The position numbers and the translations under genes are program-made. Shown piece after piece: positions 2,934 through 24,545 of a stretch of DNA of 32,000 bases; the first letter of the stretch is position 1; the number at the start of each line of letters is the position of its first letter. Under the pieces are notes generated by a model. The model was not told the origin of the DNA. It was given only the letters and a program-made list of their open reading frames with translations, and did not search any database. Source of the stretch: Nitrosopumilus zosterae (GTDB lineage Archaea > Thermoproteota > Nitrososphaeria > Nitrososphaerales > Nitrosopumilaceae); assembly GCF_025998175.1 (NCBI RefSeq), contig NZ_AP026695.1, positions 704,038 through 736,037 on the forward strand. Direction: 5' to 3'.

Positions 2934-3710
2934 TTGACGATTACAATGATTGATCAATTTTGGTTAATTCTTTTGGGATTCGCAGCAGGCATTCTAGGAT
3001 CTATGATTGGTCTTGGTGGGGGAATTGTTATAGTTCCTGTATTGACATTTCTGGGATTTCCACCTACGACTGCAGCAAGTAACAGCCTTTTTGCTGCATT
3101 AAGCAATGCGGTTGCTTCTACAATTTCATATTCTAAACAAAAAAGAATAGAAATTTCTTTAGGGTTAAAATTTGGATTGCTCTCAATTCCTGGAACTGTT
3201 TTGGGTGCAATGATCTCAACTGATGTGGCACCGGATCTTTTTAAAATATTATTTGGATTTGTTTTGATAGCATCGGCAGCGTACATTTTTTTAAGAAAAC
3301 AAATTGAACCTAAAGAAAAAGCACTATCAAAACAAATAATGATCTTTGCAGTGGGTGCAAGTTTTTTTGCAGGAATTATCTCTTCATTTTTTGGGATAGG
3401 TGGTGGTATAATCTTTGTACCATTAATGGTTGTTGGAATGGGGATGGCAATGAAAAGAGCGGCCCCTACATCTCAATTGATATTATTATTCGCTTCTTTT
3501 TCTGGAGTAATTTCTCACAGTATTTTAGGCCATCCTGATTTTATGCAGGCAGGATTTTTGGCAGCTGGTTCTTTTGTGGGTGGATTGGTTGGCGCACGCT
3601 TGTCTATTGATATACGTGAAAGATATTTGCAAATAATTGTCTCTGTTGTAGTGCTGATTGCTGCAGGAAAACTTTTTCTGGATTCACTTTCTGGTACTTT
3701 TGGATTTTAG
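2934..3710 (+). CDS. TauE/SafE (DUF81) family anion exporter, membrane protein
   Basis: Two-fold internal repeat of Gly-rich TM segments (GSMIGLGGGIVIVPVL and SSFFGIGGGIIFVPLM), about 8 TM helices. TTG at 2934; ATG at 2946 is an alternative start. Confidence 0.85.
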   Translation: MTITMIDQFWLILLGFAAGILGSMIGLGGGIVIVPVLTFLGFPPTTAASNSLFAALSNAVASTISYSKQKRIEISLGLKFGLLSIPGTVLGAMISTDVAPDLFKILFGFVLIASAAYIFLRKQIEPKEKALSKQIMIFAVGASFFAGIISSFFGIGGGIIFVPLMVVGMGMAMKRAAPTSQLILLFASFSGVISHSILGHPDFMQAGFLAAGSFVGGLVGARLSIDIRERYLQIIVSVVVLIAAGKLFLDSLSGTFGF

Positions 3711-3775: not shown

Positions 3776-3810
3776 CTGGGGAGACTAGTCGGCTTCCCGG
3801 TTTTGTTTTA
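3776..3810. terminator. GC-rich hairpin plus T-tract between convergent genes
   Basis: 8-bp stem, 3776-3783 (ctggggag) pairing with 3793-3800 (cttcccgg) including two G-T pairs, with a 9-nt loop. It is followed by ttttgtttt. It lies between the TauE gene (+) and the hotdog-like gene (-). Confidence 0.35.
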
Positions 3811-4260
3811 TCTAGGTGGTTCTTTCTTTATTCTGTAAATGTTTCTTTTTGAAATAACAATGGTCTCTCCTTCTTGATTGGTTCCTTCATAATCAATTCC
3901 AATCTTTCCATATTCTTCATCAATGTCATCTTTTTGTGAGATTGTGAATTTTAATTTCAAAACTTGATCAGTGTACAATGTCTTTAGAAATCTTGTGTTT
4001 CTGTTTTCCCATCCTGGATCCCCATCTGTTCCAACAAAAATAATGTGATTCCCATAAATCTGACTCAATCTTGTAAATTCTCCTTCCATTCTGGATAGAA
4101 TTGCCCTTCCAGAAACAATCTTTTCTTTTTCTTTTTGTCCATCTTCTAGGAATGCATTTCTAACTCTTGAAAAATTCAAATATTCTTCTAATTCTTTGTT
4201 TGAAATACTACACGTGGAATAAAACGAGTCTCCTACTTTGAATTCTGAAAATTTTTTCAT
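3808..4260 (-). CDS. hypothetical protein, possible hotdog-fold (MaoC-like) protein
   Basis: The N-terminus FSEFKVGDSFYSTCSISNKELEEYLNFSRVRNAFLED resembles the MaoC/hotdog N-terminal pattern but lacks the usual NP[IL]H. The start lies 2 nt after the stop of the upstream SDR gene. Confidence 0.55.
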   Translation of the reverse strand: MKKFSEFKVGDSFYSTCSISNKELEEYLNFSRVRNAFLEDGQKEKEKIVSGRAILSRMEGEFTRLSQIYGNHIIFVGTDGDPGWENRNTRFLKTLYTDQVLKLKFTISQKDDIDEEYGKIGIDYEGTNQEGETIVISKRNIYRIKKEPPR

Positions 4261-4262
4261 TC

Positions 4263-6032
4263 TTATCTTGTTTCATCAACACAGAAAACAATTTCTGCTG
4301 ATGATAAAGCATTATCAGTGACTAGAAAATTAAATGCATCTGCAATTCTTTGGTTGTTTGGCTCTGTACCTGTCACTGAACCTGGAAAAATTGTAAACAT
4401 TCTGATTTTTGAATTTAGAACGTCACTAAGTTCTTGGTTAACTGTGGTTGTAAATGGTCTTAACGCTCCTCTGAAAACCTCTACTTGTGCTCTTTGTATT
4501 CCTGTTACTTTCTTTCCAACTGGCAAATCTGGCCCAATTATCATGATTGCTCCTTTGGCATCTTTGTAAAGACGAGGATCATTAGCTCCTCCTGGAACAA
4601 ATTGTTCAAGTGCTCTTTGTGCAACTGTTGCTGGAGTTGAAATGAATTTTTCAGTTAAAGCCTCCCATTCTGCTCTGGATACTTCTGTTAATTTTGGTAT
4701 GTCTGGTAGTTTTCCAGTTACGTGAATAACTCCTAAAATATCCCCGATGTTTGTTTTTGCTGTGTTTAACCACCTTGCGACTTCATCGGGATTTTTGATG
4801 TCCACTATATGGGAGTGGAATTTGCTGCTGATGTATTCTTGTAATTCTGAGGGTGTGTCTTGAGAAATAAAGCATGCTACTTTTCCACCATTTTTCTCTA
4901 CATGTTGTGCTAAAAATTCAATTCTTTCGGCATCTGCTTTGTCTGTTGCATCAATTGTAAACACGACTGCTTTTCCGGTAAAGTCTGGTTGATGTACACC
5001 TGGTGCGGTAGTCCCTATGTGTGGTTTAACTGGATAAAATACTCTGTCTCCAGGAATTACTTTTCCATTGATTATTTTTGCAATTTCATCGTCGCATAGA
5101 TTGAGAACTGTTTCAGCAACTTGTCCTTGTGAAAGAAATTCTCTGTTTGCAATCATGTGAGATGTGTTGTTTTGAACCTTTTCTGCAATGGTTTGAATTT
5201 TGTTTAGTAGATTGGTAAATGTTTCAGTTAATTTAGACACATCTTTGCCGTTTGCAAGTTTGGTTGCAGCATCAGTAATTCCTTTTTTAATTACACTTTC
5301 ATCTTCTCCTAATAATGGGAGCAATTCTCTGTTTGCTTCATCAACTTGCACTGGGGATAAATCTTCAAATCCACTTACACGCATAAACTCTGCTGCGGCT
5401 TTTGGGTAAACTGTTTTGTAAATTCTATCTGAATGCACTGGACCTGGATTTGTAGCGATGGATATGATTCCTTTATCTGTCAATTCCCATGACATTAATT
5501 CTGCTAATCTATTTTTTGCTCCTTGGGATGCAGTATATGGACTTCTGAATCTATAAGGTCTCTGTTCTAGCGGTTTTTCTTCTGTAAAGAATGTGGATAT
5601 TGTAATGATTTTTCCACCTTCTTTCATTACTTTTAGAGCCTGAACAGACCCCCAGAACGTACCTGTGAGATGAATTCCTATTGTACTTTTAAATTCATCA
5701 AGTGGGGCATTTGGAAAACACGTTACTGGTCCTGAGACTCCTGCATTGTTAATTATGTAATCTATAGTGACATTATTCTTTTTTAGTTCGTCAAACATGT
5801 TGTTCATTGCTGTCTCATCTGCAACATCAACTCCTGCAAAAATTCTAACTGATGCGTTTATTCCCTGAGGGATTCTTCCTTCAAGTTCCTTTGCTGCTTC
5901 TTCTAAGGGTTCTTTTCTTCTTCCAAGAATAATCACACTAGCTCCTTCTTCTATGAATTTTGTAGCTATAGCTTTGCCTATTCCTGTTCCGCTTCCTGTA
6001 ACAAGGGCAATTTTATTTTGGAATTTTGGCAT
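4263..6032 (-). CDS. two-domain short-chain dehydrogenase/reductase, malonyl-CoA-reductase-like (589 aa)
   Basis: N-terminal classical SDR: KIALVTGSGTGIGKA, IINNAGV, PYTASQGAKNRL, NPGPVHSDRIYKTVY. The C-terminal half (KAVVFTIDATD...) is Rossmann-like but has no Gly-rich loop. See finding. Confidence 0.85.
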   Translation of the reverse strand: MPKFQNKIALVTGSGTGIGKAIATKFIEEGASVIILGRRKEPLEEAAKELEGRIPQGINASVRIFAGVDVADETAMNNMFDELKKNNVTIDYIINNAGVSGPVTCFPNAPLDEFKSTIGIHLTGTFWGSVQALKVMKEGGKIITISTFFTEEKPLEQRPYRFRSPYTASQGAKNRLAELMSWELTDKGIISIATNPGPVHSDRIYKTVYPKAAAEFMRVSGFEDLSPVQVDEANRELLPLLGEDESVIKKGITDAATKLANGKDVSKLTETFTNLLNKIQTIAEKVQNNTSHMIANREFLSQGQVAETVLNLCDDEIAKIINGKVIPGDRVFYPVKPHIGTTAPGVHQPDFTGKAVVFTIDATDKADAERIEFLAQHVEKNGGKVACFISQDTPSELQEYISSKFHSHIVDIKNPDEVARWLNTAKTNIGDILGVIHVTGKLPDIPKLTEVSRAEWEALTEKFISTPATVAQRALEQFVPGGANDPRLYKDAKGAIMIIGPDLPVGKKVTGIQRAQVEVFRGALRPFTTTVNQELSDVLNSKIRMFTIFPGSVTGTEPNNQRIADAFNFLVTDNALSSAEIVFCVDETR

Positions 6033-6127: not shown

Positions 6128-6364
6128 ATGCATGATACAGAGCCAGATACATTTGTTTATCAAACATGGCCTGAGAAATTTAGTGGAATGTTAAAAGCGA
6201 TTGGAATTGATTCAGAACCTAAAGAAATTGGTACTGATGATATTGAAAAAGGAGATTACTATAGCAGATATTTTGCTCATACAGCTAGAATGATAACTAA
6301 TAGGGGATGTCTTGATGTCAAAAACTCAAACATTGACACAATACAAATAATTCAAAAGGGATAA
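6128..6364 (+). CDS. hypothetical protein (78 aa)
   Basis: ORF only. It sits 4 nt upstream of the next co-directional ORF. No family recognised. Confidence 0.4.
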   Translation: MHDTEPDTFVYQTWPEKFSGMLKAIGIDSEPKEIGTDDIEKGDYYSRYFAHTARMITNRGCLDVKNSNIDTIQIIQKG

Positions 6365-6368
6365 AAAA

Positions 6369-6746
6369 ATGCAAGATCCAGATCCACTTCCTTGGGGCGC
6401 ATTAGATAGATTCCAAGCACATTTTATTGTAAAAAGAGACTCTGGGACTTCTGTTGGTAACTTTGTGGCAAAAACAAAACTAACCACAAAAGGTCATTTC
6501 GCTTCAAAGACTGTCGAAAAAGTTGAATGGGATGGGCCTGGAAGTTTGGCATCAAAACTCAATGCAGATGCTGAGCTAAATGAAATGATTGCAAAGCAAT
6601 CTGTTAAAGACGCAACAATCTATGTTGAACCCACTGACGGTGCTATCAGAATTAGAAATAAGTGGAATAATCATTTATCTTTTGGAATCACGAAAGATCT
6701 TTTTGAAATTTACGACAGAATAGCTGGCCACATAAAATCTGTCTAA
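6369..6746 (+). CDS. hypothetical protein (125 aa)
   Basis: ORF with balanced composition. No family recognised. Its stop codon overlaps the stop of the convergent endA gene. Confidence 0.5.
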   Translation: MQDPDPLPWGALDRFQAHFIVKRDSGTSVGNFVAKTKLTTKGHFASKTVEKVEWDGPGSLASKLNADAELNEMIAKQSVKDATIYVEPTDGAIRIRNKWNNHLSFGITKDLFEIYDRIAGHIKSV

Positions 6747-7373: not shown

Positions 7374-8027
7374 TTATAGGCTCAATGCTAATAATATGAA
7401 AGAGTCAGATACTCTTTGACATTTGTCTGACATTTCTTCAATTCCTTCTATGACGTCTTTGATTAACATCAGTTCTTTTGTTGATGTAACCTCGTTTAGA
7501 AGTTTAATTGTTGCATCCCTATATTTTATGTCTATTTCTCTTTCTATTGTTTGTGTTTCTTGAGCCAATTCAATTGCATTTGCAGTGTTTGTGTTTAGGC
7601 TTCTAATGATTTCATTTAACTTGTAGACTTCATCGACAACAAGCTCGATTAATTTGGTGATGTCTTGATCAAGTTTTGAACTTTTTAGCGTAGCTGGCTT
7701 TACATTTGATAGTTTGAATGAAATTCCTGTGATGTAACCTGCGATCTCATCCATTGTATATGCTGTGTTTAGGAGATTTTCTCTATTCATGATTAATCCT
7801 CCTACATCTGCAACTTCTCTGGTGATCTTTCGTCTTAGGCTTTCTACTTCTTCTTCAATTGTAGAAATTTGCTCTAATGCGTTTTTAATTCCTGTCTTGT
7901 CTTTTTTCATCATAAGCTCAGGGAGTGTTGCTAGTTCTCTTGCAGCATTTAGAATTCTGTTTATTTCGTCTTGTAAAACTGCTATAGCCTTTCTTTTTGC
8001 TTGAACTTCAAGCTCTCCGCTATACAT
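7374..8027 (-). CDS. DUF47 / PhoU-like (TIGR00153-type) protein
   Basis: All-helical 217-aa protein. ISTIEEEVESLRRKITREV...RENLLNTAYTMDEIAGYI fits the DUF47 pattern (E-x-x-x-D helix, then D-x-I-x-D/G helix). Confidence 0.55.
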   Translation of the reverse strand: MYSGELEVQAKRKAIAVLQDEINRILNAARELATLPELMMKKDKTGIKNALEQISTIEEEVESLRRKITREVADVGGLIMNRENLLNTAYTMDEIAGYITGISFKLSNVKPATLKSSKLDQDITKLIELVVDEVYKLNEIIRSLNTNTANAIELAQETQTIEREIDIKYRDATIKLLNEVTSTKELMLIKDVIEGIEEMSDKCQRVSDSFILLALSL

Positions 8028-8092
8028 AACAGAATGTAAAAAATCTTCAGGTAATTTAAATCCTCTATGATTTTTGATGTTTTTTGAGCATG

Positions 8093-9859
8093 TTAAATCA
8101 AATTCTTATCATGTGCCACTTTTTTTTGCCCTCTGTACAGTGTGATGACTTCTTCATTAGTTGATGCGTCTTCTGCTGCTTTTTCTACTCTTATTTTTCC
8201 GGTAAATTTTGGAAATCTTAATGCAAGTCCTGCGCCTTTTCTAATTTTGTCTTCTGCTGCTTTGTGAATTGGACTAAGTGTAATTTCTGATGCCACTACT
8301 TCTACTACTAGCTCTGGTTCAAACCATACGTCTGCTTCCATCTCGCTAATGATGCGGGGATTTTTTTTGATTGTAACTTTTGGATGTAATATTTGATACA
8401 GCTGATCTAAGGATTCATCAGAAAATCCTGTTCCCACTTTACAAATACTTGGAAATGTATCATTGTCTTCATCATATGTTGCAAGCAACAACGTTCCATA
8501 ACTTCCCGTTCTTCTTCCTTTTCCAAAAAACCCGCCTATTACAACTAGATCCAAACTGTCTCCTAATTCGTTTTGATACTCTCGTTTTAACTTCAACCAG
8601 TAATTTCCTCTGGAACCTGCTTGGTATGGTTTATCCATCATCTTTAGCATCAATCCTTCGCTACCTGCATTGATGCCATTTTCCATAAAGTCTTCAATTT
8701 CGTTTTTGTTTTTGATTGTGGTCATTGGTATGTATTTTACAAATTCATCTTCTTTTACGACTTTTTCTAATTTCTCTCTTCTGTCTTTGTATGGTAATTC
8801 TAAACAGCTTTTGCCATTGCAATATAGAACATCAAATAAATTCACTGAAATTGGGTATTGTGTTACAGCTTTTTCTATCTTGTATTTTCTTCTCCTGTGC
8901 ATTAGCTCTTGAAACGGCAAAAATTCTCCGGTGTTTTCGTTCATTGCTACTGCTTCTGCTTCCAATATGATGTTGTCAGCTTGAACTGCTTTAGGAATTC
9001 TTTCTATGATGTCGGGATAATAACTTGATATGTTTTCTAAACTTCTTGAAAACAATACCACTTTTTCTCCTTCAATGTGAAGTTGTACTCTTTCTCCGTC
9101 TAGTTTGTATTCTGCGGCAAACTCAATTCCCATTTTCTCCATTGCTTCTTCTTCACTTTTTACTCTGTCTGCAAGCATGGGTCTAATTGGATTAAATAAA
9201 ATAATTTCAAATTTTTCTACTCCTTCAATTCCTTTTGTTGCAATTATTTCTGCAACCTTTCCCAAGTCGCTTGAAACATTGTATGCGTGCTCTAAACTTT
9301 TTCTATTTTCTTTACTTCCAGAAAACGCTATTGCCAATGCATCCATCACTGTGTTTTCCGCAATTCCTAATCGTAGCGTTCCTAACAAAATTTTCAAAAT
9401 GTAACTTGCTTCTAATGGGGTTGCATCATTTAGCAAACTTGAGATGTATTTCATTTTCATGTCTTGAGAACGAGAGCCTTCTAATTTTGCAATTTTGAAT
9501 AGCGTTTCATAGACTCTTTCTATTGTGATGTCTTCGACAAGAAATGTTGTTTGTGTTTTTTGTTCCAGTATTATGGATGCTGCTTGCCCCAAGTCTCCTC
9601 CTTTTCTATATTCGTCCTCGATTTTTTTGATTGGTATTCCTGAGGATTTTGAGATTGCCCTTATTGCAAGTTTTTCTGCAACGCCTAACTCAATGCCTTC
9701 AAAATCAGGTCTTAGTTTTCCTTGTAACAGATACACAATTTTTGAAATTATGTCGTGTGGTGTGTTCTCAAATAATTCCACTAAGAATTGTGTTAACTCT
9801 AATCTTTTTCTGGTTGATTCCATTTTGTAAAATGATTCAGCTAAAATAGAAAACTCCAC
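8093..9859 (-). CDS. lig: ATP-dependent DNA ligase
   Basis: Adenylation motif AEYKLDGERVQLH (KxDG), SEGLMLK, YWLKLK and DLVVIGGFFGKGRR motifs. A 588-aa length is typical of archaeal Lig. Confidence 0.95.
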   Translation of the reverse strand: MEFSILAESFYKMESTRKRLELTQFLVELFENTPHDIISKIVYLLQGKLRPDFEGIELGVAEKLAIRAISKSSGIPIKKIEDEYRKGGDLGQAASIILEQKTQTTFLVEDITIERVYETLFKIAKLEGSRSQDMKMKYISSLLNDATPLEASYILKILLGTLRLGIAENTVMDALAIAFSGSKENRKSLEHAYNVSSDLGKVAEIIATKGIEGVEKFEIILFNPIRPMLADRVKSEEEAMEKMGIEFAAEYKLDGERVQLHIEGEKVVLFSRSLENISSYYPDIIERIPKAVQADNIILEAEAVAMNENTGEFLPFQELMHRRRKYKIEKAVTQYPISVNLFDVLYCNGKSCLELPYKDRREKLEKVVKEDEFVKYIPMTTIKNKNEIEDFMENGINAGSEGLMLKMMDKPYQAGSRGNYWLKLKREYQNELGDSLDLVVIGGFFGKGRRTGSYGTLLLATYDEDNDTFPSICKVGTGFSDESLDQLYQILHPKVTIKKNPRIISEMEADVWFEPELVVEVVASEITLSPIHKAAEDKIRKGAGLALRFPKFTGKIRVEKAAEDASTNEEVITLYRGQKKVAHDKNLI

Positions 9860-10370: not shown

Positions 10371-11507
10371 CTAATCTGGATCTTCGTAGTTCTCTTTTTT
10401 CTCGCCACTGGAGGATGCCTCTTCCATTGGTTTCATCTTTGCTTCAAGAACATCCATTCTTGCTCTGTATCCTTCAGCATATTCTAGTTCTGATGGGACA
10501 AGTGTCGCTGGGTGGATAAATCCTTGGCTTCTAATCGCAATTGCTTTCTTTGTTGCAATTTCTCTAATGTAATCCCAATCTGGAGTAGAGAATCCATCAA
10601 ATGGTCCCGTTAACTTTCCATTGTGCATGCTGAACACTAGTGCCTGTACAATTGGAATGCAAAAGTTGATTGTTGCAGCTGAATTTAGTTTTACAGGCAT
10701 TAATGGCATATTGTGACTTCCTCTTGTGTTTCCTGCAACATAATGTGGATTGTTAAACACACTTCCTACTTCTTCTGTTGCTGGAAAATTTTTTTGTGTT
10801 CTTACTAGACAAATTGGATCGTCTTTTCCAACATACGTTCCTGCAATGTTGTGTAATCTGTCAGTTGATGCATCTAAAATTGGTTCCCCATCTTTTGTGT
10901 ATACTGAATCTACAACATATCTGCCTGGATACATCAATGCAGCTTCAATTGTAGGCTTGTCTTGCCATAATTCAAGTTCTGCAATCTGTGCTTTTTCAAC
11001 ATCCATAATGTGCATCTTTACTCCTGCTGCAAGACTCTTGTTTACAATTAACCCTGTGTTACTTAGTGCATCTACAAACATTCTGTAAATTGGATAGTTG
11101 AATGCACCAGGTTCTGTTTTGTCTGCCGCAAACACAGTAAATGCTTCGTTTGGTCTTTCTTCGAATTCCATCTCTGCAACTCCAGGACCCATACCTTTTA
11201 CATTGCCTGAAAAAGAATCTTTAAGCAAATCTTGTCCTGCGCCATACAGTCCCTCTTCTTTTGCAACTTGAGTTCCCGCCATGAATGCATCCCATGCTAA
11301 TTTGTGAATTTTTTCATTATCCACACCATGAGTATGTGTCATGACAATGTGGGTATCATCTCCACAATAACCAATATAGTGATCAATTAGTAAATCCCCT
11401 GAATTCTTGACTGTGTTTCTAATTGCTTCAATTAGTCCATCACTGGGTTTTGTGTGGCCGCCTACTCCACCTACGTCTGCTTTGATAACGGAAACTGTAA
11501 TTTTCAT
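10371..11507 (-). CDS. fbp: bifunctional fructose-1,6-bisphosphate aldolase/phosphatase (class V FBPase)
   Basis: The N-terminus MKITVSVIKADVGGVGGHTKP and the overall 378-aa sequence are characteristic of the archaeal FBP aldolase/phosphatase. Confidence 0.95.
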   Translation of the reverse strand: MKITVSVIKADVGGVGGHTKPSDGLIEAIRNTVKNSGDLLIDHYIGYCGDDTHIVMTHTHGVDNEKIHKLAWDAFMAGTQVAKEEGLYGAGQDLLKDSFSGNVKGMGPGVAEMEFEERPNEAFTVFAADKTEPGAFNYPIYRMFVDALSNTGLIVNKSLAAGVKMHIMDVEKAQIAELELWQDKPTIEAALMYPGRYVVDSVYTKDGEPILDASTDRLHNIAGTYVGKDDPICLVRTQKNFPATEEVGSVFNNPHYVAGNTRGSHNMPLMPVKLNSAATINFCIPIVQALVFSMHNGKLTGPFDGFSTPDWDYIREIATKKAIAIRSQGFIHPATLVPSELEYAEGYRARMDVLEAKMKPMEEASSSGEKKENYEDPD

Positions 11508-14292: not shown

Positions 14293-14367
14293 AAAGTGAT
14301 GTTGAATTTTTTACTAATATCTTTTTCTCTCGGAAAGGTATTTCAAACCATTTTTTCTATTCTGGCT

Positions 14368-14877
14368 GTGGTCAAGAAAAGGCAGATCTTAGTAATAGGA
14401 CACAATACAAGTGGGTGCACTCCGGAACATGAAAAAATTGCATATGATGTGGGAATGGAGGTTGCAAAATCCGGCTCTGTGTTGATTTGTGGAGGATTAG
14501 GCGGGGTGATGACTGCGGCAGCTCATGGCGCTAAGGATGGCAATGGTTTAACAGTTGGCATCATTCCTCAAAATGATCCTGCCATGGCCAATGAATTCTG
14601 TGATGTGGTCATTCCAACTGGAATGGGGCTTGCTCGTGATTTCCTAAATGCACTGTCTGCTGATGGCGTAATAATTATTGGAGGGGGTTCTGGAACTCTG
14701 TCTGAAACTACTGCTGCATATATGTACAAAAAACCAATGGTTGCAATTAGAAATTTGGGCGGTTCAGTTGAGAAGTTCATTGATGGTTTTATTGATCAAA
14801 GAGAGAATGTCAAGATAGTTGGCGTTGATACCCCCAAGGAAGCAGTAGAGAAAATTCTGGAGCTAATTGCTGCATAG
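14368..14877 (+). CDS. TIGR00725 / LOG-like (Rossmann, 'lysine decarboxylase-like') family protein
   Basis: ILVIGHNTSG...GSVLICGGLGGVMTAAAHGAKDGNGLTVGIIP...IIIGGGSGTLSE is the LOG/TIGR00725 pattern. I prefer GTG 14368 as the start. The track start at 14296 adds a hydrophobic 24-aa extension that would overlap the divergent RHH promoter. Confidence 0.8.
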   Translation: MVKKRQILVIGHNTSGCTPEHEKIAYDVGMEVAKSGSVLICGGLGGVMTAAAHGAKDGNGLTVGIIPQNDPAMANEFCDVVIPTGMGLARDFLNALSADGVIIIGGGSGTLSETTAAYMYKKPMVAIRNLGGSVEKFIDGFIDQRENVKIVGVDTPKEAVEKILELIAA

Positions 14878-17123: not shown

Positions 17124-18089
17124 ATGATCGAAATTCCTGATGATGTTGAGCAATGGACTTATGGAAAGATTGTTGATTTGGTTAATGAAGGGTATGATGA
17201 AAATGATATTTTAGAAATTAAGCAAGACGTAAATGAAGATAGTGATAGATTTGCAAGATCAGTTTGTGCTTTTGCAAATACAAATGGTGGCACAATAATT
17301 TTTGGTATAGATAATAACAGAAAAAAACCATTACATCTTAATGACAGAATTTGTGGATTAGATGATTCTGATCAATTAAAGCGAAACATAATAGATAAAA
17401 TTAAACATATTCAACCCAGCATCCCGATAAAAAATTTGATTTTTCGAAAAACTAATATCAAATTACCAAACAAACGTGTAATTGTAATTTTAAAAGTAAC
17501 TCCCTCCTCAAGAAAACCTCACGAATGGAATCATGTTTTTTTGAAGAGATTGTCTGATGGAAATGAGCCAATGGATGTTACGGAAGTTAAACAGACAATA
17601 TTGGAATCTCAAAAGAATGAGAGATTACTAACTCTTCTTAGACAAGAAGCAGGTCTATTGCGTTATTTGTTCGAAAAATCAAAAAAACTTCTAGAAGAGG
17701 ATAAAATTCGTTTAACAACAATGTTTCTTAATACGATTCCTGTCGATACTGTAAAATATTTCATGCTTAACCAGTCTTTTCTTTATCCGGTACAATCGAC
17801 ACAATCTCTGATGAGGATTCTTGAAGTTGTTGAAAAAATGGAAAGCATTTCAAAAAAACATAGTACAACAAATATACTAAATGGTGATTTAAAAAAATCA
17901 CTGGAGAATCATATTGCTCTGGGATTACAAATTTTAATCCCTCAGGGACTGAAACATCTTTCGGAATTGGAAAACCATTTGGATGTAAAACTTATTCCTA
18001 CTATTGAAACCGAGGAATATGATCCCTTGTTTGATAAATTAGAAAATCCAAATGATAATTTGAATGATCAAACATCCAACAAATCATAA
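17124..18089 (+). CDS. AlbA_2 (Schlafen-like, 'divergent AAA') domain protein with unassigned helical C-terminal half
   Basis: ILEIKQDVNEDSDRFARSVCAFANTNGGTIIFGIDNNRKKP...RVIVILKVTPSSRKPH matches the AlbA_2 core (E-x-K, CAFAN-xx-GG-x-[IL]-x-G[IV]). The C-terminal 170 aa or so could not be assigned. Confidence 0.7.
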   Translation: MIEIPDDVEQWTYGKIVDLVNEGYDENDILEIKQDVNEDSDRFARSVCAFANTNGGTIIFGIDNNRKKPLHLNDRICGLDDSDQLKRNIIDKIKHIQPSIPIKNLIFRKTNIKLPNKRVIVILKVTPSSRKPHEWNHVFLKRLSDGNEPMDVTEVKQTILESQKNERLLTLLRQEAGLLRYLFEKSKKLLEEDKIRLTTMFLNTIPVDTVKYFMLNQSFLYPVQSTQSLMRILEVVEKMESISKKHSTTNILNGDLKKSLENHIALGLQILIPQGLKHLSELENHLDVKLIPTIETEEYDPLFDKLENPNDNLNDQTSNKS

Positions 18090-18247: not shown

Positions 18248-19393
18248 TTAGTCAGTCTGCATAGACACCAGTAATGGATCTGGCTTGTAAAACTCTCCAT
18301 GCTCTGTTGCAAGTTTGTTTAATTCATCTACAATGTTTTTGATGCCGATCTCTTTTGCAGTTTCAAACAATGGTTTTTTCAGACCCAGTCCCAACTGTGC
18401 CGCTTTTTCGATCTCTTCAATATCACTTGCACCGTTAGTCACAAGCCATGCGGCATTGTTAATAATATTTGCAACAAGTTGAATGGGATTGCATTTTTGT
18501 GCAAGTTCTTCTGAAAGCGCAACTCTCTCATATTTGTCATCAGAATACTTGTAAAACCCCTCCCCTGATTTTTGTCCGAGTTTTTTCTCATCAAACATTT
18601 TTTCAACTAGATGGTGTGGATTGATCACTTTTTTGTCTCGTAGATGCATCTCGACTGTTGCTTTGTGAATTACGTCCATTCCCGTAAAATCTGCCAGCTC
18701 AAAAATCCCCATTGGAAATCTCAGTTTGAATTTAACAGCAGAATCTATCTCCTCAAGGGTTGCACCTGTTCTGTCTTTGACAAAACATGCTTCATGAACC
18801 ATTGGGATGAACAATCTATTTATGATAAATCCTGGAACGTCTTTTCTACATAGTACGGCGATTTTGTTAACCGATTTGACATATTCTTGAGTTAAATCCG
18901 TGATTTTTTGCGATGTTTTTTCTCCCGGGATTATTTCTACCAGCTTCATTAACTGTGGTGGGTTGAAGAAATGGATTCCTATGAATTTGTCTGGGCGTGA
19001 TGTTGTGTTTGCAATTTCGGTGATTGGCAACGTACTTGTGTTTGATGCAAAGATTACCTCTGGGGCTGCAACTTTGTCCAGTTCTGCATAAACTGTTTTC
19101 TTCAAGTCCATTATTTCGGGAACTACCTCAATTACTAGTTCTGCATCTTTTACTGCTTCTGCCAAATCCACAATTGGCTTTATTCTTGCAAAAATTGAAT
19201 CTCCCTCATCCTTTGAAATTTTTTCTTTTGATACCAGTTTGTCCAAGCTCCATCTTATCTTCTCCATGGCTTTGTCCAAAAATTCCTGTTTGATGTCTCG
19301 TAAAACTACATTATATCCTGCTGTTGCAGAAACTTGGGCTATGCCGTGACCCATTACACCAGATCCTAAAACTGTGATATTTTTTATTGACAC
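18248..19393 (-). CDS. 3-hydroxyacyl-CoA (3-hydroxybutyryl-CoA) dehydrogenase, NAD-binding, with duplicated C-terminal domain
   Basis: ITVLGSGVMGHGIAQV Rossmann loop, SNTSTL, GIHFFNPP, PGFIINRL motifs, plus an extra C-terminal helical repeat. GTG 19393 (VSIKNITVLGSG) is the preferred start. The track ORF runs to 19486 with an implausible 31-aa leader. Confidence 0.9.
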   Translation of the reverse strand: MSIKNITVLGSGVMGHGIAQVSATAGYNVVLRDIKQEFLDKAMEKIRWSLDKLVSKEKISKDEGDSIFARIKPIVDLAEAVKDAELVIEVVPEIMDLKKTVYAELDKVAAPEVIFASNTSTLPITEIANTTSRPDKFIGIHFFNPPQLMKLVEIIPGEKTSQKITDLTQEYVKSVNKIAVLCRKDVPGFIINRLFIPMVHEACFVKDRTGATLEEIDSAVKFKLRFPMGIFELADFTGMDVIHKATVEMHLRDKKVINPHHLVEKMFDEKKLGQKSGEGFYKYSDDKYERVALSEELAQKCNPIQLVANIINNAAWLVTNGASDIEEIEKAAQLGLGLKKPLFETAKEIGIKNIVDELNKLATEHGEFYKPDPLLVSMQTD

Positions 19394-19603
19394 TGATTCT
19401 AAAAAATTGAGATCCTTTATAATGTATTTGACTATTGTTGTTCGATTTTGTAACTCAAAATTTTTTGAATCAAAATTGATCCTCAAAACGGTTTATGCCT
19501 CATAGTTTCAAATTTTAGATTATCTGTTAACATAATATGCTGTTCTTAGCTTGGTTGATTCAATAACACACATTGTTAGATGCTCTTTTTTTAAAAAAAT
19601 CAT

Positions 19604-23424: not shown

Positions 23425-23832
23425 ATGGACTGTATTTTCTGTAAAATCATCTCTGGTGATATCCCTGCAAAAATCATTAAAGAAACAAGTTATTCGATAT
23501 CGTTTTTAGACGCATTTCCACTTGCAAAGGGCCATGTACTTGTAATTCCAAAAAATCATCATCAAAAAATTCAGGATATGAGCGAAAAAGAAAACTCTGA
23601 TTTGTTTTCTCTTGTACATTCTATGATTTCAAAGGTTGACTCTATTACCGGTTCCACTTTACTTGCTATACATAACGGTAAAGATGCAGGACAGGAAGTA
23701 CCACATGTTCATGTACATCTAGTTCCAAGAAGCAAAGATGATTCTGCAGGAGCAATTCATTCCATGTTTAGTCATTCACTGAAACTATCTGACTCTGAAA
23801 TAGATGAGATATATGAAAAATTAAAAGTCTAA
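23425..23832 (+). CDS. HIT (histidine triad) family nucleotide hydrolase/transferase
   Basis: CIFCKII...DAFPLAKGHVLVIPK...VPHVHVHLVP is the histidine triad motif. Confidence 0.92.
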   Translation: MDCIFCKIISGDIPAKIIKETSYSISFLDAFPLAKGHVLVIPKNHHQKIQDMSEKENSDLFSLVHSMISKVDSITGSTLLAIHNGKDAGQEVPHVHVHLVPRSKDDSAGAIHSMFSHSLKLSDSEIDEIYEKLKV

Positions 23833-24545
23833 TACGGGTACAATCTTTCATTTGAATCTATATTTTCAACGATGATTGCTTTTGTTGGGCATGTCTCAGC
23901 AGCATTCATAATTTTGTTTACTCCGGCACCCTTTTGATTAATCACTGAGGATTTTGGATTTGACCTGCTTTCTTTATTGATTTCAAACACGTCTGGAGCT
24001 ATCATTTCACAACTACAACATCCAATACATCGACTTTTGTCTACATCTACGAAAAGATTTGGCTGTTTTTTGGGTTCTTGTGCTTTTTCATATTCCCCGT
24101 TTCTCCCGTCCGGACGAACCCGTGCATTATATTCCTCCCAAAATTTTCGCTCATACTCTTTCCAAAAATCAGGATCTCCTTCTTCGAACTCACGAGTGTA
24201 TTTACTCCAATCCTGTTCTGGAATGCCTCCGTCATCTGGTGCTCCCCATTGTGGCTTTTTCTTGTATCGTGTTTTGGTGTTTGGTTTTTCAGCATGTTTT
24301 TTCTGTGATGAACTGTTTTGATGATTGTGATTTTTCTTCAAAAAATTATAGGCCTCTGTAATTTTTTTAAATTCCGTGTCACTTACTGCATTTTTATTTT
24401 TGTCAGGATGCCATTCTAGTGCCAGCTTTCTGTATGCTGCCTTGATCTCGTCTTGTGATGAATCCTGATTCACATTCAATACCTTGATTGCCTGATATGT
24501 GTTCACTGAAGATAGAGATTTGTCATATGATAAAAATAATTGCAA
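23829..24545 (-). CDS. J-domain protein fused to a C-terminal ferredoxin-type Fe-S domain
   Basis: J-domain YQAIKVLNVNQDSSQDEIKAAYRKLALEWHPDKNK (HPD present). The C-terminus CIGCCSCEMIAPDVF...AAETCPTKAI is a CxxCxxC...CP ferredoxin motif. TTG 24545 or GTG 24506 as start. Confidence 0.85.
   Translation of the reverse strand: MQLFLSYDKSLSSVNTYQAIKVLNVNQDSSQDEIKAAYRKLALEWHPDKNKNAVSDTEFKKITEAYNFLKKNHNHQNSSSQKKHAEKPNTKTRYKKKPQWGAPDDGGIPEQDWSKYTREFEEGDPDFWKEYERKFWEEYNARVRPDGRNGEYEKAQEPKKQPNLFVDVDKSRCIGCCSCEMIAPDVFEINKESRSNPKSSVINQKGAGVNKIMNAAETCPTKAIIVENIDSNERLYPY

Follow-up and report, generated by a model that had tools for sequence, protein, structure and literature searches.

A stand-alone double short-chain dehydrogenase/reductase resembling one half of bifunctional malonyl-CoA reductase: a candidate acyl-CoA reductase of ammonia-oxidising archaea

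Ammonia-oxidising archaea (AOA) are among Earth's most abundant autotrophs, and among aerobic routes of CO2 fixation their 3-hydroxypropionate/4-hydroxybutyrate (HP/HB) cycle is considered the most energy-efficient. Here we describe a candidate for reductive steps of the thaumarchaeal cycle, a 589-aa double short-chain dehydrogenase/reductase (SDR) encoded at 4263..6032 on the minus strand of a 32,000-nucleotide stretch of the Nitrosopumilus zosterae genome (NZ_AP026695.1, positions 704,038 to 736,037), hereafter the window. Papers of 2018 and 2020 list the malonyl-CoA, succinyl-CoA, succinic semialdehyde and acryloyl-CoA reductions of AOA as steps without an assigned gene. Both still call the malonyl-CoA and succinyl-CoA reductases unidentified, in agreement with a first-pass annotation of this DNA, made from the sequence alone, which had stated that these two steps have no assigned gene. 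The activities of AOA extracts that await an enzyme are NADPH-dependent (2018 paper).

The closest described systems are the two halves of the bifunctional malonyl-CoA reductase (MCR), in each of which a catalytic SDR is paired with a pseudo-SDR; this layout and the MCR motifs, as given in the first-pass annotation, are both correct against the published structures. The C-terminal half (MCR-C; Chloroflexus aurantiacus, Roseiflexus castenholzii and Porphyrobacter dokdonensis; 8A30, 8HI5, 6K8S) comprises SDR3, an extra domain and SDR4, and the alcohol-forming N-terminal half (MCR-N; 8AEW, 8HI6, 6K8V) comprises SDR1 and SDR2. In MCR-C, the malonate or malonyl moiety is bound by Ser719, Tyr731, Arg734, Tyr737 and Arg773, of which MCR-N has equivalents. 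The ligand of the nicotinamide ribose is Lys741, and R734, R773 and Y731 mutants are inactive (PMC10470521; bioRxiv 10.1101/2023.03.21.533589). Arg773 of MCR-C is essential and closes the lid (bioRxiv 10.1101/2023.03.21.533589), and Arg41, in SDR1 of the Roseiflexus enzyme, binds the 2'-phosphate of NADPH (PMC10470521). The malonyl-CoA/succinyl-CoA reductase of the Sulfolobales (Metallosphaera/Sulfolobus) is comparable by functional analogy alone: it serves the same HP/HB steps but belongs to the aspartate-semialdehyde-dehydrogenase family, whose fold is unrelated, and Pfam and NCBIfam found no such domain in the window protein. Among AOA themselves, Hallam et al. (2006) tentatively named a C. 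symbiosum open reading frame (ORF) as an MCR candidate, with an N-terminal SDR 32% identical to Chloroflexus MCR and an extra C-terminal region; this ORF is very probably an orthologue of the 589-aa protein. The MCR candidacy of the AOA protein was already proposed there, and the sequence clade and bacterial fusions described below are new support for it. Our literature search found no function assignment or assay of the 589-aa protein.

Databases name the 589-aa protein just 'SDR family NAD(P)-dependent oxidoreductase'. It stands alone and is built as a double SDR like one half of MCR. Pfam assigned its N-half to adh_short (E 5.5e-40, residues 7-202) and found no family in its C-half. In an AlphaFold2 model computed from an alignment of 70 orthologues (predicted local distance difference test score, pLDDT, 86.5; predicted TM-score, pTM, 0.88), a Rossmann-type SDR domain (residues 1-~205 and ~299-330) is interrupted by four helices (residues ~205-298, 5139..5420, minus strand; helices 202-220, 227-240, 245-259 and 265-293 by DSSP of the model), and a short low-confidence linker (330-336) leads into a second Rossmann-like domain of alternating strands and helices (~350-589). 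The 95-aa insertion occupies the position of the 150-aa extra, or lid, domain of MCR-C and of a ~55-aa insertion in MCR-N. When the C-half (residues 341-589; 4266..5012, minus strand) was inspected for a Gly-rich loop and a YxxxK, neither was present, and hhalign aligned it with all four MCR domains (SDR1, E 4e-10; SDR4, 1.2e-9; SDR3, 3.8e-9; SDR2, 4.3e-6; probabilities 87-97%). Because the C-half is, by hhalign, a diverged SDR lacking the Gly loop and the Tyr/Lys pair, its earlier description as a Rossmann-like pseudo-SDR behind a classical N-terminal SDR is correct, with adh_short, the model fold and hhalign in agreement. Hidden Markov model searches with the sequence did not detect the C-half in the MCR chains of the PDB; this similarity was picked up by hhalign and Foldseek alone. 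Strongly conserved patches of the pseudo-SDR among the 70 orthologues are R453, W456 and EVFRGALRP (518-526).

When the model was compared with the PDB using Foldseek, full-length matches were confined to the two halves of MCR. MCR-C gave the best E-values (1.6e-28 to 1e-26; query TM-score, TMq, 0.70-0.74; root-mean-square deviation, rmsd, 8-9 Å), and MCR-N the best TM-score and rmsd (E 6e-26 to 3e-25; TMq 0.71-0.73; target TM-score, TMt, 0.78; rmsd 4.3-5.9 Å). They were followed by the two-SDR domain of yeast MFE-2 (E 5e-19), and ordinary single SDRs covered half of the query (E ~1e-14, TMq 0.37).

We then placed the active site on that of MCR by alignment, using as a conservation sample the 70 AOA orthologues, which span Nitrosopumilales and Nitrososphaerales, include Nitrososphaera gargensis and go down to 47% identity. 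The classical SDR motifs TGSGTGIG (residues 12-19, the cofactor loop; 5976..5999, minus strand) and NNAG (95-98) are invariant in all of them. Strand 2 is followed by Arg38 and Arg39, the former of which aligns with Arg41 of Roseiflexus MCR (8hi4), and both this NADPH-specific arginine and the adenine-binding Asp are conserved, from which NADPH is the predicted cofactor. In the HMMER alignment, T147, Y160, R163, Y166 and R203 fall on S719, Y731, R734, Y737 and R773 of Chloroflexus MCR-C, and this malonate pentad is invariant in 70/70 orthologues. Four of its members lie in the segment TFFTEEKPLEQRPYRFRSPYTASQGAK (5514..5594, minus strand), which reads T147...Y160-x2-R163-x2-Y166-T-A-S-Q170-G-A-K173; the fifth, Arg203, lies in PGPVHSDRIYKTVYPKAAAE (residues 196-215; 5388..5447, minus strand), itself invariant in AOA. 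The cofactor loop and both of these strings had been quoted in the first-pass annotation, and all were located in the sequence. By these alignments, the cofactor site is intact, as is a pocket that would suit an omega-carboxy acyl group of short chain, and we are fairly confident that the protein would bind a malonyl- or succinyl-type moiety together with NADPH. The profile and structure matches to the MCR halves exceed generic SDR similarity in architecture, in the five-residue malonate site, in a loop insertion and in the NADPH arginine. An equivalent of Arg1164 of Roseiflexus SDR4 was also sought in the pseudo-SDR; Arg1164 varies even among canonical MCRs and is unusable as a marker.

The site departs from the SDR rule at one position. 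T147 and Y166 are present, and the Tyr-x3-Lys of SDRs is not: Gln170 stands at Tyr+4 and Lys173 at +7, as the first-pass annotation had noticed in the string Y-T-A-S-Q with a lysine three residues on. Both residues are invariant in the 70 AOA orthologues and common to all bacterial clade-mates. MCR-C has the mirror arrangement, Y-A-V-S-K-A-G-Q, with the Gln at +7 kept in 18/18 aligned canonical representatives; at +7, MCR-N lacks a polar residue. In our alignment, a polar Lys/Gln pair at +4/+7 is restricted to MCR-C and the YxxxQxxK proteins. Loop length follows the same line. Thr147 and Tyr166 are 19 residues apart, the corresponding Ser and Tyr 18 apart in MCR-C, and the distance in MCR-N is 13, an insertion of 5-6 residues that is common to SDR3 alone. 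The mobile loop of MCR-C corresponds in position to residues 149-161, the sole long low-confidence stretch of the model (pLDDT<50). Further MCR-C-like traits are the family profile, which scores SDR3 at 83-84 bits and SDR1 at 74-75 bits, the pseudo-SDR, which is nearer SDR4 than SDR2, and the helical insertion after PGPxxxxR. The continuation 'VYP' after this last motif is specific to the AOA-like clade.

Relatives were gathered by an exhaustive search of 1.8 billion representatives, and every close relative retrieved had Y-T-x-[AS]-Q-x-x-K, the longer active-site loop and 'VYP'. In a bootstrapped neighbour-joining (NJ) tree of 70 catalytic SDR domains, whose distances are saturated, these proteins were monophyletic in 84% of the bootstraps. 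The YxxxQxxK signature marks a third, uncharacterised clade of MCR-type double SDRs.

Outside the archaea, the clade is found in metagenome-assembled genomes of Ca. Deferrimicrobium, Binatia and Thermodesulfobacteriota, where annotations are generic. The bacterial multidomain proteins (P0262/P0264, P0278, P0310, P0245) are 32-37% identical to the window protein over all 589 aa and share its 'VYP' and pseudo-SDR; they differ in having a second SDR pair fused, often with enoyl-CoA hydratase, medium-chain dehydrogenase/reductase (MDR) enoyl reductase and acyl-CoA ligase domains. We mapped the layout of the largest ones by local phmmer. P0262, P0264 and P0269 (~1135 aa) consist of an AOA-like unit followed by the second SDR pair, whose active site has the short-loop T-x13-Y-xxx-K typical of MCR-N. 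P0278 (2552 aa, locus L006) runs from an MDR enoyl reductase through an enoyl-CoA hydratase and the AOA-like unit to the second unit, and a gene for an AMP-forming acyl-CoA ligase adjoins it; at L007 these parts are encoded by adjacent genes of their own, and at L005 an MDR-hydratase gene lies upstream of P0264. In P0310 (4553 aa), P0292 (6910 aa) and P0245 (5572 aa), the acyl-CoA ligase is added within one polypeptide. The combined domains would make up a malonyl-CoA reductase plus propionyl-CoA synthase set, that is, the segment from malonyl-CoA to propionyl-CoA. As the fusions include both an MDR enoyl reductase and a unit like MCR-N, the AOA-like unit would most simply be their aldehyde-forming acyl-CoA reductase.

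The giants among these proteins, P0245, P0246 (5945 aa), P0292 and P0310, unite two MCR-type SDR pairs with a hydratase, an MDR reductase and an acyl-CoA ligase. Signal-peptide-like N-termini occur in them, as do apparent transmembrane stretches between the enzymatic blocks and long regions in which no domain is recognised, and they look like an unusual membrane-anchored metabolic mega-enzyme. P0265 (1465 aa) is unlike the metabolic fusions: its YxxxQxxK double SDR is joined to a C-terminal HATPase_c domain (histidine-kinase-type ATPase), and it has an N-terminal P-loop-like motif.

Our leading hypothesis, for which we consider the chances evenly balanced, is that the 589-aa protein is the NADPH-dependent malonyl-/succinyl-CoA reductase of the thaumarchaeal HP/HB cycle, as the alignments and the model suggest. 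The fuller proposal, in which it is also the founding member of a relocated-lysine (YxxxQxxK) acyl-CoA reductase clade that extends to bacterial polypeptides of up to ~6900 aa with every activity from malonyl-CoA to propionyl-CoA, is tentative and falls a little short of an even chance. As an acyl-CoA reductase, the protein would act on malonyl-CoA and probably on succinyl-CoA too. Hydride from NADPH would convert the thioester to a hemithioacetal held by Thr147 and Tyr166; the carboxylate would be bound by Arg163 and Arg203, which would also help the intermediate collapse to semialdehyde and CoA. As in MCR-C, closure over the substrate would come from the disordered loop 149-161 together with the lid 205-298, and the non-catalytic pseudo-SDR would buttress and probably complete the substrate pocket. 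The Gln170/Lys173 pair, with its Lys one helical turn beyond the usual site, probably still tethers the nicotinamide ribose, since it is the exact mirror of that in MCR-C (Lys +4, Gln +7). Reduction of the semialdehydes would fall to separate enzymes, in AOA a malonic semialdehyde reductase of the Nmar_1110 type. The product of the 150-aa ORF that follows the SDR gene (see below) may be co-transcribed, and would at most be an accessory partner that binds acyl-CoA or modulates the enzyme.

A number of observations weigh against this assignment. The canonical catalytic Lys is absent, and mutating that Lys abolishes MCR activity (PMC10470521; bioRxiv 10.1101/2023.03.21.533589). At 95 aa, the lid is smaller than the extra domain of MCR-C, whose 150 aa provide CoA contacts (e.g., Arg799). 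MCR-N, which is alcohol-forming, has the same malonate pentad, so that a thioester and a semialdehyde substrate are not told apart by the pentad. In place of Ser, the catalytic site has Thr, matching T165 of MCR-N; the N-half scores slightly better with SDR1 in hhalign (E 3.9e-34 vs 4.1e-28), and Foldseek rmsd and TMt favour MCR-N. By distance, the YxxxQxxK clade is as far from MCR-C as from MCR-N or generic SDRs, and in the NJ tree AOA-like sequences group with MCR-C in 1% of the bootstraps, the best placement grouping reaches <=14%, and affiliation with SDR3 is unsupported. The association of propionyl-CoA-synthase type is recurrent yet missing at L088 and L089, and the bacterial proteins are uncharacterised. 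An HP/HB gene ~12 kb away in the window is weak evidence for the function of the SDR. Finally, the candidate has been visible since 2006 with no published confirmation, and negative unpublished tests could exist.

Overall, the resemblance to the two MCR halves is split. The loop, the Lys/Gln pair, the profile, the SDR4-like pseudo-domain and the lid point to MCR-C, from which the protein differs in the swap of Gln +4 and Lys +7, in Thr for Ser, in a lid of ~95 aa vs ~150 aa, in an identity of ~18% over the structural alignment, in being archaeal and in having no alcohol-forming half fused to it. The Thr, N-half hhalign and rmsd/TMt point to MCR-N, which also shares its size (549 vs 589 aa), two-domain layout and carboxylate ligands but has a canonical YxxxK, no loop insertion and a shorter lid, and whose SDR2 is the MCR domain farthest from the C-half. 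Of the acyl-CoA reductase candidacy put forward in the first-pass annotation, the MCR-half-like architecture and the conservation across AOA stand, and sequence and structure leave the choice between MCR-C and MCR-N undecided.

The MCR-N side of this split can be read as an enzyme of a different step. A semialdehyde reductase of MCR-N type, converting succinic semialdehyde to 4-hydroxybutyrate or serving as a second malonic semialdehyde reductase, would need the same carboxylate pocket and no CoA site; the equal conservation of the pentad in MCR-N, the Thr, and the SDR1 and rmsd/TMt preferences all suit it, and the succinic semialdehyde reductase of AOA is itself listed as unidentified (2018 paper). 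We nevertheless hold this main rival unlikely, as MCR-C is favoured by the inserted loop residues, the Lys/Gln pair, the larger lid and the pseudo-domain's likeness to SDR4, the bacterial fusions already contain a second unit with the short loop of MCR-N, and the strong conservation of the pseudo-SDR surface is hard to reconcile with a small-molecule substrate. Far less probable is an enoyl-thioester reductase, namely the acryloyl-CoA reductase of the HP/HB cycle, in which Lys173 would bind the ribose and Tyr166, a turn earlier, protonate the enolate. The Y166-x6-K173 spacing equals the YxxMxxxK of FabI-type enzymes. In SDR nomenclature, however, these 'divergent' SDRs combine YxxMxxxK with a non-classical Gly motif and no NNAG, and the 589-aa protein has the classical TGxxxGIG and NNAG. 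No gaps are needed to align its Y-x2-R-x2-Y register with MCR, acryloyl-CoA would give no role to the two invariant arginines, which suit a carboxylate, and an MDR enoyl reductase is already present in the bacterial fusions, even if acryloyl-CoA reductase is likewise unidentified in AOA (2018 paper).

More generally, the MCR scaffold could have been put to use in unrelated metabolism (e.g., a 3-ketoacyl/hydroxyacyl-CoA reductase or one of a cofactor or lipid pathway), or the protein could be a catalytically impaired one of structural or regulatory role. The catalytic domain alone scores higher with glucose dehydrogenase (92.8 bits) than with MCR (83 bits), the deep phylogeny is saturated and yields no supported placement, and the ligase, ketoreductase-like SDRs, hydratase and enoyl reductase of the fusions could also fit a module for beta-processing or reverse beta-oxidation; impairment would fit the inactivation of MCR by loss of the Lys at +4. 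Against this, MCR alone matches the full-length architecture, the gene is near-universal in AOA, and the cofactor loop, the NADPH Arg, the Thr/Tyr pair, both arginines and Lys173 are invariant over ~50% divergence, which favours an active enzyme acting on a carboxylated substrate; we hold this explanation improbable as well.

The malonyl-/succinyl-CoA reductase assignment is directly testable, as the candidate is cloneable and near-universally conserved and the residues of interest are defined (T147, Y160, R163, Y166, Q170, K173, R203). Metagenomic surveys would gain a marker for a step now reported as 'missing'. Should the enzyme be active, its Lys/Gln swap would make an informative departure from the SDR catalytic tetrad. 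Those who engineer 3-hydroxypropionate production would likewise take an interest in the compact unit with its single function and in the mega-fusions of bacteria.

To follow the gene beyond the window, we searched species-level genomes with two invariant peptides (VHSDRIYK and VYPKAAAE). At least 554 genomes, that of N. gargensis among them, encode a relative, and the gene is near-universal in AOA. Neighbourhoods were taken from the best 80 of these at least 554, all of which are Nitrosopumilaceae. In the window, the SDR gene is followed by an ORF of 150 aa (3808..4260, minus strand), with the TAA of the former and the ATG of the latter separated by 2 nt (4261..4262, minus strand; TAA-ga-ATG); both ORFs and the spacer are as first annotated. 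The 150-aa ORF is intact behind the SDR gene in 59-61 of the 76 Nitrosopumilaceae loci with enough sequence, with an identical 2-nt spacer in 51 of the 76, and the homologues are 62-89% identical to the window copy. It is missing or fragmentary in ~15/76, several of which have TauE immediately after the SDR gene, and was not adjacent to the SDR gene in N. gargensis or two other Nitrososphaerales contigs. Partial tblastn matches over 28-110 residues reveal remnants of it downstream of the SDR gene at L019, L033, L049 and L076, which suggests ongoing pseudogenisation rather than assembly artefacts, and at least 11 further genomes lack it cleanly. The convergent downstream neighbour of the SDR gene in both Nitrosopumilus and N. 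gargensis is a gene for a TauE/SafE-family membrane protein (2934-3710, plus strand, in the window; 7862-8632 at L001), and in Nitrosopumilaceae the 150-aa ORF seems to have been inserted between them.

The 150-aa protein is an accessory one, specific to Nitrosopumilaceae, conserved but dispensable; that it is dispensable and lineage-specific follows from its absence or degradation in ~15/76 loci and from the three Nitrososphaerales loci where it is not beside the gene. Its database name is 'hypothetical protein', and the first-pass annotation had called it hotdog/MaoC-like, for which we obtained weak-to-moderate profile and Foldseek support and no match that passes a threshold. Neither Pfam nor NCBIfam gave a match above cut-off, the sole NCBIfam match being the MaoC part of PaaZ (E 0.25). 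A profile of its family had the MaoC-like 1q6w as its top match in the PDB, at a weak E of 0.069, and hhalign aligned the family colinearly with the MaoC domain of E. coli PaaZ over 92 columns (E 0.02, probability 2.4%). Its model is poor (pLDDT 52.8), and nearly all of the top ~50 Foldseek matches are hotdog/MaoC proteins (best E 3.7e-3, TM ~0.4). The MaoC-like hotdogs that dominate this list (A. fulgidus 1Q6W, NodN-like 4FFU, the C-terminal domain of PaaZ) are of similar size and share colinear landmarks with it, namely an N-terminal xVGD strand, S-x3-N, an IVxG helix start and an RFxxP strand. They differ in that all matches of the ORF are below threshold, its hydratase Asp/His are replaced and it has no Pfam family. 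In the low-confidence alignment to PaaZ, S31-R-V33-R-N35-A-F-L38 stands opposite SGDHFYAH, so that the hydratase-2 motif S-G-D-x-N-P-x-H is not reproduced, Val33 and Leu38 occupying the positions of the catalytic Asp and His; the family keeps S31, R32, N35, F37 and L38 without exception. A SnoaL_3 fold, matched weakly by 36/38 members (best E 0.0028), was judged less likely, as two independent sequence matches and the Foldseek list point to MaoC. From the model and these matches, the protein is probably a non-catalytic MaoC-like hotdog. The further suggestion that a hotdog neighbour implies thioester chemistry gains no support: the partner is patchy in Nitrosopumilaceae and absent beside the three Nitrososphaerales genes and, as it probably also lacks the MaoC Asp/His, it tells little of the core chemistry.

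On the SDR gene's opposite flank lie two small ORFs of 78 and 125 aa (6128-6364 and 6369-6746, plus strand), for which family and structure searches gave no match. They adjoin it in 73-74/80 Nitrosopumilaceae loci and, at 33-45% identity, in 3/3 Nitrososphaerales loci (5209-5511 and 5518-5925 at L001; 5088-5773 at L003). The pair is divergent from the SDR gene in Nitrosopumilus and at L003; in N. gargensis it lies immediately upstream and is co-directional with the gene. In contrast to the 150-aa ORF, the pair stays adjacent across orders, which could reflect a functional link or mere conservation of gene order. Nmar_1042 is listed under arCOG08727, a Thaumarchaeota-specific uncharacterised family found in 29 thaumarchaeal genomes and none outside (PMC6393860); to judge from gene order, it could correspond to the 150-aa ORF, or else to one of the two small ORFs upstream.

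Elsewhere, the window (GC ~35%, nearest proteins Nitrosopumilus sequences of 92-97% identity) encodes a 3-hydroxyacyl-CoA dehydrogenase (18248..19486) and a fructose-1,6-bisphosphate aldolase/phosphatase (10371..11507; FBPase_3, E 4e-152), the two genes that the first-pass annotation had named as an HP/HB-type 3-hydroxybutyryl-CoA dehydrogenase and the aldolase/phosphatase. Three further genes bear no relation to the SDR: one for an SLOG cluster-4 (LDcluster4) protein (14296-14877, plus strand), one for a Schlafen/AlbA_2 protein (17124-18089, plus strand), and one in which a DnaJ domain is fused to a single-cluster ferredoxin domain (23829-24545, minus strand).

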